Positions 1,420 through 59,730 of a DNA stretch of 64,000 nt are shown one piece after another (the stretch's first letter is position 1; the number at the start of each line of letters is the position of its first letter). A program made the position numbers and the translations under genes. Source of the DNA: Escherichia phage TH12. The stretch is taken from the sequence record MT446390.1. One strand, written 5' to 3'. Under the pieces are notes generated by a model that saw only the letters and a list, made by a program, of their open reading frames with translations, made no database searches and was not told the origin of the DNA.

Positions 1420-1723
1420 GAAGCCGGGTCGCTACCGGCAAGTCGTCGGACTGATGTTCCCTGAGTAAGGACTGGTCTTAATAAATCTTTACGATTTGTT
1501 AATATCCCCTTACATCACAGCAGAAACGGCGCACAGAATTATCGATTCGAGGAAATATCTTTGCCGTAAGCCGAGTAGCGTTTTTGACGGAACGTTCGGA
1601 TATGGTCGAGATATGGCCTTTTAAAAATATTGAGTAGCGTCAACTGCTTAATAACCGGGTTCGAATCCCGGCGTTTCGTACAAACACTTGCCTTAGTAGG
1701 TGGAAACCCCGACAAGGTATATA

Positions 1724-1751
1724 GCCCCTTCCGAAAGGTTGGGGCTTTTTT
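1724..1751 (+). terminator. intrinsic terminator (GC stem, GAAA loop, T-run)
   Basis: GCCCCTTCC-GAAA-GGTTGGGGC followed by TTTTTT. Confidence 0.6.
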
Positions 1752-1752
1752 G

Positions 1753-1760
1753 TATAAATA
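1753..1760 (+). promoter_or_regulatory. T4-type late promoter TATAAATA
   Basis: Exact TATAAATA about 35 nt upstream of ATG 1796. Confidence 0.5.
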
Positions 1761-1795: not shown

Positions 1796-2422
1796 ATGTA
1801 TACTTTTAATGAATTTTTAGCCGAAACGGAAGTAATCACCGAAGCCGGTGTACGTATGACAAAAGAGAAATGGCAAGCTGCTTACGATGCTATTTCTGGT
1901 ACAAAAACTAGTACAGAGTTTTTCAAAAACGTTCAAGCCATGTACGGTATCGACACTTCCAGCCAAAAAGAATATTACAGAGCTTCTAAAGCATTCAAAG
2001 ATATTGTTAGTGGTGGTGTTTCTGCTAAATCTGGTTCGCCTAAAGTAAAACCTGCTCCTACCATTCCTAAACCTGCGACCCCTAAAGCAATAGCAAAACC
2101 TGAGCCTAAGCCGGAAGTAAAAGCAACTCCTAAAGCTCCCGCTCTTAAGTTTGATACTTCTAGCCTGGAAAAAAAATATAAACAACTATCTTCGCTTGTT
2201 CGTGATATTGAATCCGATACATCTTCACTCGTTCGTGAATTCAACAGTCTTCGTAATGGCCAACATATCAACAACCTTGATACCCCAGACCTTTATCGTC
2301 TTTATTTGACTATCGAAGGTTTGAAGTATACTCAACCACTTCACGATGCGATTAAAGAAAAACTTCGTCAGGCAGGTCGTTTGGCCGCTGACGCTGCTCA
2401 GTATGCAAAAACTCGTAAGTAA
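1796..2422 (+). CDS. internal-protein-like capsid cargo (208 aa) with N-terminal capsid-targeting-like sequence MYTFNEFLAE and Pro/Lys-rich linker
   Basis: N-terminus resembles T4 IP capsid targeting sequence MKTYQEFIAE; late promoter upstream. Confidence 0.55.
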   Translation: MYTFNEFLAETEVITEAGVRMTKEKWQAAYDAISGTKTSTEFFKNVQAMYGIDTSSQKEYYRASKAFKDIVSGGVSAKSGSPKVKPAPTIPKPATPKAIAKPEPKPEVKATPKAPALKFDTSSLEKKYKQLSSLVRDIESDTSSLVREFNSLRNGQHINNLDTPDLYRLYLTIEGLKYTQPLHDAIKEKLRQAGRLAADAAQYAKTRK

Positions 2423-2427
2423 AGAAT

Positions 2428-2446
2428 GGGGACTTCGGTCCCCTTT
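2428..2446 (+). terminator. UUCG-tetraloop hairpin terminator
   Basis: GGGGAC-TTCG-GTCCCC then TTT. Confidence 0.5.
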
Positions 2447-8980: not shown

Positions 8981-9428
8981 GAAAAATAAAGTGAAAGAAC
9001 TATCAGCCGGTATTATCTTCATGACAAAAGATAAAGAATTATTCATGGGTCGTGTAACTGGTTCTCGTCCTAAAGGTGCATTAGCTCATCGGTGGGATAT
9101 TCCTAAAGGCCGTGTCGAACCTGGCGAATCTCCTATCGAAGCCGCTATTCGTGAATGCGAAGAAGAAACTGGGTTTACACAATATGACCCTGCCTTCCTG
9201 AAAGACCTAGGTGAACATCATTACTCAGATAATAAGAATATTCATCTGTTCCTATATACCATCCCTGTAGAGCACGAGCAATTCAGAAACAGTGTTTGTA
9301 ATTCATATCATACATTCCCGGACGGACGACAGATTCCTGAATTTGATGCATTCGCTTTAATTAAACCTTCTCAATGGGAATATGTAATGGGCAAATCATT
9401 ATATAAGGTGCTCACTACCATCCTATAA
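8970..9428 (+). CDS. nudE: Nudix hydrolase (T4 NudE-like)
   Basis: Nudix box GRVEPGESPIEAAIRECEEETGF; sits just upstream of e as in T4. Confidence 0.8.
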   Translation: MMSKKNKVKELSAGIIFMTKDKELFMGRVTGSRPKGALAHRWDIPKGRVEPGESPIEAAIRECEEETGFTQYDPAFLKDLGEHHYSDNKNIHLFLYTIPVEHEQFRNSVCNSYHTFPDGRQIPEFDAFALIKPSQWEYVMGKSLYKVLTTIL

Positions 9429-9462
9429 GTAATAAATACCTCCTATAAACGTGGGAGGTATT

Positions 9463-9951
9463 ATGAATATATTTGAAATGCTTCGTAATGACGAAGGTCT
9501 TAGACTGACTTTATACAAAGACACTGAAGGCTTTTGGACGATTGGCATAGGCCATTTAGTAACAAAGAACCCGTCTTTAGCCGTAGCTAAAGCTGAACTT
9601 GACAGAATGATCGGTCGTAAATGCAACGGTACAATTACCCTTGATGAGGCTGAAAAGCTATTTAATGAAGACGTCGATAAAGCCGTTCGCGGAATCTTGG
9701 GTAATGCTAAACTTAAACCGGTATATGATTCTTTAGACGCGGTTCGTCGATGTGCATTGGTCAATATGGTCTTCCAAATGGGTGTAGCAGGCGTTGCTGG
9801 TTTTACTAATTCTCTTCGTATGCTTCAACAGAAACGTTGGGATGAAGCGGCAGTAAATCTCGCCCAATCTAAATGGTATCGTCAGACACCTAATCGCGCG
9901 AAACGCGTAATCTCAACATTTAAAACAGGAACTTGGAAAGCGTATATATGA
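9463..9951 (+). CDS. e: T4-type lysozyme (endolysin)
   Basis: [15 protein letters not shown]...TGTW, near-identical to T4 lysozyme over full length. Confidence 0.95.
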
Positions 9952-10229
9952 AAACATATAGTGAATTTTTATCAGAATCTATTCTTAACGAAGCTACTGA
10001 CACATTTGCAACTAAGCTAGGTGCAGCTTTGGTTGAAGCCGAAAGTCTATTAGCACGTATTTCTGAACTTGCTAGTAAGATAGATACTCGCAAATTTGAA
10101 CGTACCAGCGATATCGCTAAGCTTGAAGCCTTGTTACGTATGTGCGATAAACCGGAAGAAATCGCTAAGAACGGCTCGCTGATGAAACAACGTCTTGAAA
10201 AATATATTTCAGGCGCTTCAGAAAAATAG
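9948..10229 (+). CDS. internal-protein-like (93 aa) with capsid-targeting-like N-terminus MKTYSEF
   Basis: CTS-like N-terminus; ATGA overlap with e stop. Confidence 0.5.
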
Positions 10230-10230
10230 T

Positions 10231-10260
10231 GTTTACTTCCTCCAAGGGTTTTGATACTAT
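10231..10260 (+). promoter_or_regulatory. early promoter (GTTTAC, 18 nt, TACTAT)
   Basis: Motif. Confidence 0.5.
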
Positions 10261-10287
10261 ACATTCATCAACTACTTGGAGGAAATT

Positions 10288-10701
10288 ATGACTCGTATCA
10301 ATTTAACACTTGTTTCTGAACTGACCGATCAACATCTTATGGCTGAGTATCGTGAATTACCACGCGTATTTAGTGCAGTCCGTAAACATGTCCAAAACGG
10401 TAAACGTGTAAAGGATTTTAAAATCTCTCCAACATTTATCTTAGGCACAGGTCACGTAACATTCTTTTACGACAAACTTGAATTTTTACGTTTACGACAA
10501 ATCGAGCTAATCGCTGAATGCTTGAAACGTGGTTTCAAAATCAAGGACACGACAGTCCAGGATATTTCCGACATCCCTGCCGAATTTCGTAATAATTATG
10601 TCCCGTCCGAAGCGTCCGTTGCGATAAGTCAAGCACGCTTAGATGAAAAAATTGCTCAACGTCCTACTTGGTACAAATACTATGGTAAATCAATTTACTA
10701 A
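10288..10701 (+). CDS. denV: endonuclease V (pyrimidine-dimer DNA glycosylase)
   Basis: [12 protein letters not shown]...TWYKYYGK, near-identical to T4 DenV. Confidence 0.95.
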
Positions 10702-10707
10702 GGAAAA

Positions 10708-10968
10708 ATGAAAATGTATCAAGAATTTATCATTGAAGCAGATGCCAAAGGTCCTAAATTTAAAGTTAAAGCTTTCATTGGTGATGCCGAAGACTTTGGC
10801 TCATTAAAACGTAATGGGTATTCTTTCTTAGGTGGCGATGGTAAAGAAATCAACACCTATGCAAAACGTAGTGAAATTGCTTATGTTGTAGTAAATCCTA
10901 AAGTAGATGTTGACGATATTGGATACGATTTTAACAACTTCGGAATTATTTCTGGCGGTAAAGCTTAA
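10708..10968 (+). CDS. internal-protein-like (86 aa) with CTS-like N-terminus MKMYQEFIIEA
   Basis: CTS-like N-terminus. Confidence 0.5.
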   Translation: MKMYQEFIIEADAKGPKFKVKAFIGDAEDFGSLKRNGYSFLGGDGKEINTYAKRSEIAYVVVNPKVDVDDIGYDFNNFGIISGGKA

Positions 10969-10972
10969 ATTG

Positions 10973-11001
10973 TTTACGCTTAAGTATTAATATGGTATAA
11001 T
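10973..11001 (+). promoter_or_regulatory. early promoter (GTTTAC, 17 nt, TATAAT)
   Basis: Consensus match. Confidence 0.55.
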
Positions 11002-11032
11002 TACTCTATCAAAACAAACAAGGAAACAAAAA

Positions 11033-11335
11033 ATGAAAACATATCAAGAATTTATTACTGAAGCGCGAGTGAGTGCAGGTAAATTAGAAGCCGCTATAAA
11101 TAAAAAGGCCCATTCATTTCATGATTTGTCCGATAAAGACCGTAAGAAACTTGTAAGCCTTTATATTGACAAAGAGCGTATTCTCGCTCTTCCTGGCGCT
11201 AATGAAGGTAAACAGGCCAAGCCTTTGAATGCTGTCGAAAAGAAAATTGATAACTTTGCTTCTAAATTCGGTATGTCTATGGATGACCTTCAGCAAGCGG
11301 CTATCGAAGCAGCTAAAGTAATTAAAGGTAAATAA
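11033..11335 (+). CDS. internal protein (IPII/IPIII-like, 100 aa) with CTS MKTYQEFITEA
   Basis: N-terminal region matches my recollection of T4 internal proteins. Confidence 0.7.
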   Translation: MKTYQEFITEARVSAGKLEAAINKKAHSFHDLSDKDRKKLVSLYIDKERILALPGANEGKQAKPLNAVEKKIDNFASKFGMSMDDLQQAAIEAAKVIKGK

Positions 11336-15702: not shown

Positions 15703-16284
15703 ATGGCTAGTTTAATTTTTACCTATGCCGCTATGAACGCTGGTAAGTCTGCTTCATTACTTACTGCCGCACATAACTATAAAGAACGTGGCATGGGTGT
15801 ATTAGTTCTTAAACCGGCTATTGATACTCGCGATTCAAAAGGTGAAATAGTCTCCCGTATTGGTATTCGTCAGGATGCCAATATAATTACAAAAGACATG
15901 GATATCTTTGAATTTTATAAATGGGCTGCAGCACAAAAGGATATTCACTGTGTATTTGTTGACGAAGCTCAGTTCTTAACTACTGAAAAGGTGTATCAAC
16001 TTAGTCGTATTGTTGACGTATACAATGTGCCGGTAATGGCATACGGACTACGAACAGATTTTAAAGGTAATCTATTTGAAGGTTCTCAAGCATTAATGGC
16101 TATTGCCGATAAGCTTGTTGAACTTAAAGGTGTCTGTCATTGTGGTAAAAAGGCCACTATGGTAGCTAGAGTCACGGAAGACGGACTTCCAATTACAGAT
16201 GGCAGTCAAATTGAAATTGGTGATACCGATAGATACGTGTCATTATGCCGGAAGCATTGGAATGATTTGACAGGGTTGTTATAA
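15703..16284 (+). CDS. tk: thymidine kinase
   Basis: P-loop AAMNAGKSASLL and zinc-ribbon Cys pairs; matches T4 Tk. Confidence 0.95.
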   Translation: MASLIFTYAAMNAGKSASLLTAAHNYKERGMGVLVLKPAIDTRDSKGEIVSRIGIRQDANIITKDMDIFEFYKWAAAQKDIHCVFVDEAQFLTTEKVYQLSRIVDVYNVPVMAYGLRTDFKGNLFEGSQALMAIADKLVELKGVCHCGKKATMVARVTEDGLPITDGSQIEIGDTDRYVSLCRKHWNDLTGLL

Positions 16285-16290
16285 ATACTA
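16283..16290 (+). promoter_or_regulatory. late promoter TATAAATA
   Basis: Exact motif overlapping tk stop, about 22 nt upstream of ATG 16312. Confidence 0.4.
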
Positions 16291-59690: not shown

Positions 59691-59698
59691 TTATAAAT
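59691..59698 (+). promoter_or_regulatory. late promoter TATAAATA
   Basis: Exact motif about 33 nt upstream of soc. Confidence 0.55.
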
Positions 59699-59730
59699 AC
59701 ACCTGTAATTAAACAACAAAGGAGTTAATT

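Follow-up and report, generated by a model that had tools for sequence, protein, structure and literature searches.

Positions 9948–11335 of the DNA analyzed here, a 64 kb stretch of Escherichia phage TH12 (the window), are the known internal-protein genes of a T4-like (RB69-type) phage, and a separate ORF at 1796 probably encodes, from what its sequence indicates, a further, larger and basic internal protein. The best explanation of the data, in which we place high confidence, is an internal protein (IP) locus next to the lysozyme gene e whose products would be packaged through a capsid targeting sequence (CTS) and injected, and which diversifies by cassette exchange, with ORF 1796 (ORF D) as an additional internal protein. 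The window belongs to a Mosigvirus, an RB69-like T-even phage, with 99.9% identity to phage CCU7, and Shigella phage Shf125875 (RefSeq) is 99.5% identical over the e-proximal locus. T-even internal proteins, their targeting sequence and the polymorphism of their loci have been described since the 1990s, and two IP loci are recognized in these phages, one from e to vs.8 and the other from 57B to trna.4. In the nearest relative an IPI ortholog sits immediately before the point where the window begins, and the predicted injected repertoire comprises this IPI, the three proteins of the e-proximal interval (IP-A, IP-B, and IPII), and probably ORF D. Near-identical relatives such as Shf125875 encode the gp22 scaffold and the gp21 protease together with gp67 and gp68; all four genes lie outside the window, gp21 and gp22 being seen in the relatives only. 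Internal proteins are not discussed by Petrov et al. (2010).

A sequence-only reading of this DNA had proposed that the ORFs starting at 9948, 10708, 11033, and 1796 share an N-terminus that matches the T4 CTS while their bodies are unrelated, and both parts of the proposal hold. The four N-termini read exactly as described, and the pattern [YFW]xEF[ILVM]xE finds these ORFs and nothing else, with four matches in the six-frame translation of the window, each at residue 4 of an ATG-started ORF. Block-shuffled DNA gave a mean of 0.11 matches and never reached four in 300 shuffles, and shuffling residues within the 142 plus-strand ORFs gave 0.0005 N-terminal matches against the four observed. According to the portion of Mullaney and Black (1996) relayed in a later article (PMC9026906), targeting by the T4 CTS depends on an aromatic residue at position 4 and on Phe 7, and cleavage by gp21 on Ile or Leu at position 8 and on Glu 10. 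All four N-termini carry these determinants, with Y4/F7 in 9948, 10708, and 11033 and F4/F7 in 1796, like T4 IPI, followed by the gp21 motif and a small residue (LSE/S, IIE/A, ITE/A, and LAE/T, respectively, with the slash marking the predicted cut). Second candidate gp21 sites are present in IP-A (LNE/A) and in ORF D (ITE/A), and T4 IPI likewise has a second, more distal site (ITE/A) after its CTS. This GmrSD inhibitor (IPI*, for which an NMR structure is reported) follows the same targeting and processing logic with an unrelated body. When the first 12 residues were removed, BLASTP paired none of the four ORFs with one another or with T4 IPI or IPIII at E < 0.09, the sole body match being that of 11033 to T4 IPII (93% identity). 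Searches of Pfam and NCBIfam returned nothing meaningful for any of the four proteins, the only hits being DUF7412 below threshold for IPII and, for ORF D, a low-complexity match to a TonB linker. We found no virion proteomics or N-terminal sequencing in the literature for TH12 or for the IP-A, IP-B, and ORF D families (the search for the last covering fHe-Yen9-01, JS98, and T4-like proteomes in general), and for this reason we infer packaging and cleavage in TH12.

The first gene of the e-proximal interval, IP-A (93 aa; 9948–10229, plus strand), encodes an internal head protein of the Ip5 family equivalent to RB69ORF127c, with candidate gp21 sites after residues 10 (LSE/S) and 15 (LNE/A). Its start and the stop of e overlap as ATGA; the program-made ORF list opens the frame at a TTG at 9933, and the annotated start is the ATG at 9948. 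Over 84 residues IP-A shares ~48% identity with the Ip5 protein of T2 and RB32, which also has a CTS N-terminus, although Ip5 lies in the 57B to trna.4 locus in T2 whereas IP-A directly follows e and is translationally coupled to it. The family is carried by 496 phage records, and in 232 records the identity to IP-A is 95% or higher, the next step falling below 60%. The repair gene denV (endonuclease V, by the annotation of relatives; 10288–10701, plus strand), which is not an internal protein, separates IP-A from IP-B, and the interleaving with denV described in the sequence-only reading is thus present. The position of denV relative to the IP genes varies, and the gene is missing in some related loci and in T2. 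IP-B (86 aa; 10708–10968, plus strand) is an internal head protein equivalent to RB69ORF125c, with the CTS MKMYQEFIIE and the candidate site IIE/A. A second ATG lies two codons into the gene; because relatives read MKTY at this start, the motif stays in register when the first ATG is used. The family occurs in 217 phage records and is annotated as internal head protein in VR20, VR25, and CGG4-1, and the AlphaFold2 model of IP-B (pLDDT 43) is too poor for fold comparison. IP-A and IP-B match phrog_3499 (E = 2e-46) and phrog_2667 (E = 9e-21), both labeled "internal head protein" and both families annotated from the signal sequence only. The mature forms of the two proteins are near neutral (pI ~6.4 for IP-B), unlike the classical basic T4 internal proteins.

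The third gene, at 11033–11335 (plus strand; 100 aa), is an ortholog of T4 ipII with the CTS MKTYQEFITE and the candidate site ITE/A, and its predicted mature form is a basic protein of 90 aa (pI 9.7). It differs from T4 IPII (Ip2) by seven substitutions (93% identity) and matches phrog_7857 at E = 4.5e-55; like IP-A and IP-B it falls in a PHROG family annotated as internal head or virion protein, and all three are so annotated in the Shf125875 RefSeq record. Homology to an experimentally demonstrated virion protein is available for 11033; ORF 1796 matches none. The T4 protein shares the CTS (one substitution, A9T), the I-x-E/A context, and the e to vs.8 neighborhood, but T4 ipII precedes denV whereas 11033 comes after it, and the DNA of T4 carries glucosyl-hydroxymethylcytosine (glucosyl-hmC) whereas that of the phage encoding 11033 carries arabinosyl-hmC. 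Upstream of ipII lies a sigma-70/T4-early-type promoter (10973–11001, plus strand; TTTACG, 17 nt, TATAAT, extended TG) that agrees with the consensus scanned for at 10 of 12 positions, and the same block precedes ipIII in three related loci (L008, L009, and L011). The exact late-promoter consensus TATAAATA occurs four times in the 64 kb, two of the matches preceding the late genes rI.-1/rI and soc and a third lying upstream of ORF D. The fourth match lies within ipII, at 11095. We weighed it as a late promoter internal to the gene and rejected it; T4 reads GTAAATA at the equivalent position, so the match is probably fortuitous. Neither 10708 nor 11033 has the exact consensus immediately upstream. 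Only one-mismatch sites, one of them at IP-B, and the early-type promoter of ipII are present there, and e, to which IP-A is coupled, has one-mismatch late-promoter-like sites of its own.

Comparison across T4-like genomes, which the sequence-only reading had suggested as a check, covered 23 T-even loci anchored on e and a few loci of the ORF D slot. The e to vs.8 interval holds from zero to four CTS genes per locus, on either side of denV, and the 63 pooled CTS proteins fall into 20 body clusters. The data do not bear out the claimed fast evolution: the variability arises not by rapid point change but because whole cassettes are swapped, gained, or lost, while each family is itself highly conserved. 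The window and loci L008, L009, and L011 are collinear and near-identical through the promoter, the Shine-Dalgarno sequence, and the CTS codons, and diverge at a breakpoint directly after the CTS, beyond which the window has an IPII body and the other three an IPIII body. The shared Shine-Dalgarno and CTS-coding block (~45 bp) probably serves as one recombination joint for such exchange. IP-A is 99% identical in the Mosigvirus-type locus L008, whose lysozyme e is 100% identical to that of the window, and in loci L010 and L011, whose nudE is only 63% identical to that of the window, and it is 98.9% identical in records labeled Tequatrovirus. IP cassettes move between loci with strongly differing flanking genes, Tequatrovirus records included. 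T4, the type phage of Tequatrovirus, has glucosyl- and not arabinosyl-hmC.

ORF D (208 aa; 1796–2422, plus strand) is a candidate internal protein that carries no such annotation. Its CTS, MYTFNEFLAE, is followed by candidate gp21 sites after residues 10 (LAE/T) and 16 (ITE/A), and the N-terminal motif and the second site are retained in homologs down to 33% identity. The protein is basic (pI ~9.5–9.7, 34 K+R) and comes close to T4 IPIII in size and charge, which speaks for an internal protein, and in an AlphaFold2 model a Pro/Lys/Ala-rich linker connects two helical domains. It belongs to phrog_2280 ("unknown function"), and its homologs are "hypothetical protein" or un-annotated in all 40 records listed among 138 phage records. 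A consensus T4 late promoter (TATAAATA, 1753–1760, plus strand) ends 35 nt upstream of the ATG, and is kept upstream of the homologs in JS98, PG7, and SonariX, which belong to three other genera. A terminator-like hairpin with a T-run (1723–1751, plus strand), which also precedes these homologs, ends the tRNA/rnaD/rnaC unit and forms the left border of a polymorphic cassette; a second terminator-like hairpin (GGGGAC TTCG GTCCCC TTT; 2428–2446, plus strand) follows ORF D a short way within the right border. Shf125875 ceases to be homologous at 1749 and is so again from 2469.

These borders place ORF D between rnaC and the e.x genes (e.8/e.6), outside both recognized IP loci, in a slot that is empty in T4 and T2 and that in Shf125875 and phiE142 is occupied by different CTS ORFs. 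Close relatives have very divergent relatives of ORF D, or two tandem CTS genes, in its place, the alternates being a 154-aa gp140-like protein in Shf125875 and a 187-aa protein in phiE142. The gp140-like protein and ORF D are connected only through an intermediate (P0037, 41% identical to the former and 27% to the latter), a direct hhalign comparison of the two being non-significant (probability 7%), and the phiE142 protein is weakly linked to ORF D (E = 0.008). Anchoring the slot on the ORF150c protein in IMG/VR retrieved two loci only. A profile of the ORF D family found no solved relative, a Foldseek search of the model against the PDB gave a best E of 2, and neither in sequence nor in fold did ORF D resemble a proven internal protein. 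We consider it rather probable that Tevenvirinae have a third internal-protein slot, from rnaC to e.8/e.6, represented by ORF D and its alternates, with large (150–220 aa), mostly basic, two-domain, CTS-bearing members and a late promoter in the ORF D lineage. No record examined annotates it as an internal-protein locus, an oversight that the empty slot in T4 and T2 would explain.

The sequence-only reading took the products of these genes for injected anti-defense effectors, a view that published work on T-even internal proteins supports and that we infer for TH12. T-even internal proteins are described as a diverse, injected anti-defense set sharing only the CTS (PMC3012670; PMC9391042), and work from 2025 showed that T4 Ip1, Ip2, and Ip3 block three distinct GmrSD type IV restriction enzymes, one each (PMC12373910), which extended the anti-restriction role to Ip2 and Ip3. 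By analogy, the first 10 residues would act as the CTS and bind each protein to the gp22/gp67/gp68 scaffolding core during prohead assembly, the gp21 prohead protease would cut after Glu10 and possibly also after the second L/I-x-E site, and the mature protein would be kept in the DNA-filled head in many copies (~360 of each for T4 internal proteins) and injected with the DNA. Inside the host, their most likely action would be stoichiometric, variant-specific inhibition of GmrSD-type enzymes, which attack the sugar-modified hmC DNA of these phages. Since Ip2 inhibits the GmrSD of ECOR21 (PMC12373910), its ortholog at 11033 is expected, given the similarity of the two sequences, to block ECOR21-type GmrSD.

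A somewhat unlikely alternative is that the TH12 internal proteins target defenses other than GmrSD, such as other modification-dependent nucleases, the BREX-associated BrxU, or non-nuclease systems. RB69-like phages, Shf125875 among them, carry arabinosyl- rather than glucosyl-hmC (PMC6024577), and near-identical IP-A proteins occur across L008, L010, L011, and the records labeled Tequatrovirus; both observations fit such targets. Ten further ip genes, which the supplements to Silas et al. (2025) do not name, yielded no new inhibitor pair when assayed against eight active GmrSD systems (PMC12373910), so an anti-GmrSD role for IP-A, IP-B, and ORF D is only an extrapolation. All three internal proteins of known function nevertheless inhibit GmrSD, and RB69 IPI shields arabinosyl-hmC DNA from GmrSD (PMC6024577).

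For ORF D, and possibly for IP-A and IP-B, a second alternative accepts CTS-mediated packaging but assigns the protein a mainly structural, DNA-condensing, or prohead-assembly role rather than defense inhibition. Several features of ORF D are in keeping with this view: the protein is large and strongly basic, its Lys/Pro-rich linker is disordered, and it diverges roughly with the phage backbone (66% identity to JS98 and 34% to PG7, compared with 78% and 71% for lysozyme e in the matching loci). T4 IPIII (Ip3) partly plays such a role, its mutants assembling heads more slowly and giving a smaller burst (PMC9026906), and it resembles ORF D in size (193 vs 208 aa), CTS, and charge (34 K+R and pI 9.5 for both precursors). 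The two have no detectable sequence similarity beyond the CTS, however, and ORF D differs in its locus, in having its own late promoter, and in its two-domain helical architecture with a Pro/Lys linker; IPIII-like genes lie at the e locus in the sister phages (L008, L009, and L011). The polymorphic slot, empty in T4 and T2, indicates that ORF D is dispensable for head assembly, and IPIII has itself proved to be a GmrSD inhibitor (PMC12373910). A mainly structural role is thus improbable. Under the preferred reading, ORF D would occupy a polymorphic slot apart from the e-proximal locus and be transcribed from a late promoter of its own, and its role may be nearer that of IPIII, DNA-associated and assembly-related in addition to anti-defense.

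The last alternative treats the shared 5′ end as a nucleic-acid element (for translation initiation, an mRNA signal, or a recombination linker) and the proteins as cytoplasmic early or accessory products that are never packaged. The Shine-Dalgarno sequence and first-11-codon block are near-identical in DNA among T4 ipII, T4 ipIII, and the window, the switch from one alternative cassette to another comes directly after this block, and ipII has an early-type promoter, as such an element would predict. Among 64 distinct CTS-bearing 5′ regions, though, Thr3 is encoded by all four Thr codons, Ala11 by all four Ala codons, and position 8 (Ile or Leu) by six different codons, while Phe7 is invariant, Tyr or Phe occupies position 4 in every sequence, and Glu10 is kept in 60 of the 64. 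This pattern argues that selection on the CTS acts at the level of the peptide and not of the DNA. With amino acids kept while codons vary, upstream sequences that differ widely, and a T4 CTS that is experimentally sufficient to package foreign proteins (PMC9026906; PMC3012670), a nucleic-acid element is a very improbable explanation.

The e-proximal locus that was originally flagged adds nothing to existing knowledge, and ORF D is the modestly new part of this analysis. The two better-linked families of its slot have matches in up to ~650 public phage records, where they are "hypothetical protein" or un-annotated. If ORF D and its relatives are internal proteins, as is probable, they would make up a larger, widespread, and un-annotated family of CTS proteins, whose members are candidates for anti-defense screens and for better phage annotation.

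The N-termini that the sequence-only reading had claimed for ORF 9948 (9948..10229, 93 aa; IP-A), ORF 10708 (10708..10968, 86 aa; IP-B), ORF 11033 (11033..11335, 100 aa) and ORF 1796 (1796..2422, 208 aa) are exact in the sequence, and the proposed match to the T4 capsid targeting sequence (CTS) holds at the determinant positions 4, 7, 8 and 10 in all four ORFs. The CTS was defined experimentally on T4 internal protein (IP) III, the first 10 residues being enough for packaging, with residues 4 and 7 serving targeting and residues 8 and 10 cleavage by the prohead protease gp21 (PMC9026906). The pattern [YFW]xEF[ILVM]xE has only four matches in the six-frame translation of the 64 kb, each at residue 4 of an ATG ORF; shuffled DNA gave a mean of 0.11 matches, and none of 300 shuffles reached four. 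When residues were shuffled within the window's 142 plus-strand ORFs, 0.0005 N-terminal matches were expected against the four observed.

In the 3.4 kb around the flagged genes, identity is 99.9% to Escherichia phage CCU7 and 99.5% to the Mosigvirus (RB69-like Tevenvirinae) Shigella phage Shf125875. The plus-strand order is trna.2, tRNA-Met, tRNA-Arg, ORF150c, the rnaD and rnaC homologues, ORF 1796, e.x genes, nudE, lysozyme e, ORF 9948, denV (10288..10701), ORF 10708, ORF 11033, vs.8, vs.7 and vs.6, in which the reported interleaving with denV is evident. T4 carries e, ipIII, ipII, denV and vs.8 at the corresponding place, and its ipI elsewhere, in the 57B to trna.4 interval. In CCU7 the gene directly 5' of the window start encodes an IPI orthologue. 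The genes for the scaffolding core and for the gp21 protease lie outside the window and are present in Shf125875. The 'intergenic' stretch 1416-1680, between ORF150c and ORF 1796, encodes the homologues of rnaD (1416-1534, 87% identity) and rnaC (1542-1680, 98.6% identity), two small stable RNAs of T4, for which Rfam 15 has no family and ARAGORN makes no call; positions 1650-1675, inside the rnaC homologue, resemble a tRNA T-arm.

Each of the three flagged genes between e and vs.8 falls into a PHROG family whose annotation reads internal head or virion protein, and the Shf125875 RefSeq record labels the first two internal head protein and the third IpII. IP-A (phrog_3499) is matched in 496 phage records and shares ~48% identity with the Ip5 proteins of T2 and RB32; IP-B (phrog_2667) is found in 217 records, several annotated internal head protein; the mature forms of both are near neutral, not basic. 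Full-length alignment of ORF 11033 (phrog_7857) with T4 IPII gives 93% identity and identifies it by sequence as the IPII orthologue. The bodies had been called unrelated, and with the first 12 residues removed they indeed lack BLASTP similarity to each other, as well as to T4 IPI or IPIII, but ORF 11033 is a relative of T4 IPII. IP-A is translationally coupled to e through an ATGA overlap (9948-9951). Upstream of e, a hairpin (CCTCC..GGAGG, 9439-9458) would sequester the Shine-Dalgarno sequence, and it is closely preceded by TATAAGTA and AATAAATA, two late-promoter-like sites with one mismatch each (region 9424-9465). This layout resembles the T4 arrangement, where e is translated only from late transcripts.

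A comparison across T4-like genomes, as the earlier reading had proposed, was anchored on lysozyme e in IMG/VR and returned 54 loci, 23 of which, with e at least 60% identical, were used. Their e-to-vs.8 intervals hold 0-4 CTS ORFs per locus, on either side of denV. Together with T4 IPI-III and Shf125875 gp140, the CTS ORFs from the window and from these loci make up 63 proteins in 20 body clusters. Locus L008, whose lysozyme does not differ from that of the window, nevertheless reads A, denV, B, IPIII plus a protein of 109 aa, compared with A, denV, B and IPII in the window. IP-A is 99% identical in L010 and L011, loci with an e of 88% and a nudE of only 63% identity to the window. Its identities show a bimodal distribution, with 232 records at 95% or more and then a drop to below 60%. 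The variability thus arises from shuffling and horizontal transfer of conserved cassettes, which is not the rapid sequence drift that 'fast-evolving' implies. Downstream of e, denV is absent from L011, L013, L020 and L027, as it is from T2 (LC348380.1, 62.1-63.0 kb), so it acts as a further exchangeable cassette alongside the IP genes. Several related phages carry extra CTS ORFs among their e.x genes, at a distance of 1-4 kb on the 5' side of e (L008 1477; L010 414; L025 126 and 2813; L027 1745; L030 1395), so that IP genes seem to be spread more widely than the 'two loci' of the literature.

The window and related loci supplied 64 distinct 5' regions with a CTS. Phe7 never varies among them, position 4 is Tyr or Phe in all 64, and Glu10 occurs in 60, with all four codons in use for Thr3 and for Ala11 and six different codons for the Ile or Leu at position 8. 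This conservation of amino acids over varying codons shows that selection on the region acts on the peptide. The DNA block nonetheless is important for the evolution of the cassettes. The window is collinear and nearly identical with L008, L009 and L011 from the end of IP-B through the promoter, Shine-Dalgarno and CTS codons, and the IPII body switches to an IPIII body right after the CTS. The block AAAGGAAAC..ATGAAAACATATCAAGAATTTATTGCCGAAGC is also common to T4 ipII and ipIII, whose upstream sequences otherwise differ. Both observations fit cassette exchange by recombination inside the shared 5' block, as Repoila et al. reportedly proposed in 1994.

Infection of ECOR17 requires IPIII, which still works without its CTS when made in the host (Srikant et al., 2022; PMC9391042). 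Among the GmrSD type IV restriction enzymes, Ip1 inhibits that of CT596, Ip2 that of ECOR21 and Ip3 that of ECOR17, a different one in each case; two Ip loci are described as a hotspot, and ten further ip genes yielded no new inhibitor pairs (Silas et al., 2025; PMC12373910). RB69-like phages, including Shf125875, contain arabinosyl-hmC, and RB69 IPI protects against GmrSD (PMC6024577). Most likely, by orthology for the window's IPII and by analogy for IP-A and IP-B, the CTS would direct the proteins onto the prohead core, where gp21 would cleave them, and after co-injection with the DNA they would specifically inhibit modification-dependent nucleases. The interpretation first given to this locus is correct and established in the literature; it is a textbook feature, already annotated in public records.

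ORF 1796 occupies a polymorphic slot outside that locus. Homology between the window and Shf125875 ends at 1749 and restarts at 2469, and Shf125875 holds a different CTS ORF there (gp140, 154 aa, N-terminus MKSYAEFLTEQ), whose family has matches in 512 records and is hypothetical or un-annotated in 25/25 among the matches listed. In phiE142 (L006) a gp140-type gene and a 187-aa CTS ORF lie in tandem, the latter weakly linked to ORF 1796 (E = 0.008). An exhaustive profile search recovered intermediates between the slot families; one, P0037, matches both a gp140-like protein (41% identity, E = 6e-25) and ORF 1796 (27%, E = 2e-14), which places the two occupants in one superfamily with some domain swapping. 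The gene 3' of ORF 1796 (2502-2837), whose product contains MSLYTELNKK, is shortened to 111 aa, compared with 167 aa for the Shf125875 homologue and 176 aa for that of phiE142; ~217 bp of Shf125875 are missing from the window near 2792-2822, altering its C-terminus.

ORF 1796 itself belongs to phrog_2280 ('unknown function'), and its family, in 138 phage records, is 'hypothetical protein' or un-annotated in 40/40 among the matches listed. Its ATG is preceded, at a distance of 35 nt, by an exact T4 late promoter, TATAAATA, which directly follows a terminator hairpin. The 64 kb hold four exact copies, fewer than chance (4 vs 7.7) and all on the plus strand: two others precede the late genes rI.-1/rI (16280-16287, ending 24 nt 5' of an ORF of 70 aa, after which comes an rI-like membrane protein) and soc (59692-59699, ending 31 nt 5'), and the copy inside ipII (11095-11102) is probably fortuitous because T4 reads GTAAATA there. 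Hairpin and promoter recur together 5' of the JS98 (Dhakavirus), PG7 (Karamvirus) and SonariX homologues, and Marfa has cATAAATA. The record of Enterobacter phage SonariX (PQ898399.1) is a 248.7 kb 'partial genome' in which the homologue and the DNA 5' of it are nearly the same as in the 173 kb PG7, and it may be composite or mis-assembled.

Homologues keep the N-terminus M-x-x-[FY]-[NK]-[ED]-F-[LI]-x-E while the body drops to ~33% identity, and a second site of the form [IL]-[ST/N]-E|[AS] usually follows. ORF 1796 resembles T4 IPIII in size and charge (208 vs 193 aa, 34 K+R each, pI 9.5). An AlphaFold2 model (pLDDT 71) predicts two helical domains (residues 19-73 and 113-208) connected by a disordered Pro/Lys/Ala linker, with no fold match in the PDB. 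We consider it quite probable that the ORF 1796 product is packaged and processed as an internal protein. The slot is empty in T4 and T2, which probably explains why its proteins were never studied. It is this candidate third IP slot around ORF 1796, the part not already annotated, that carries the residual value of the analysis.
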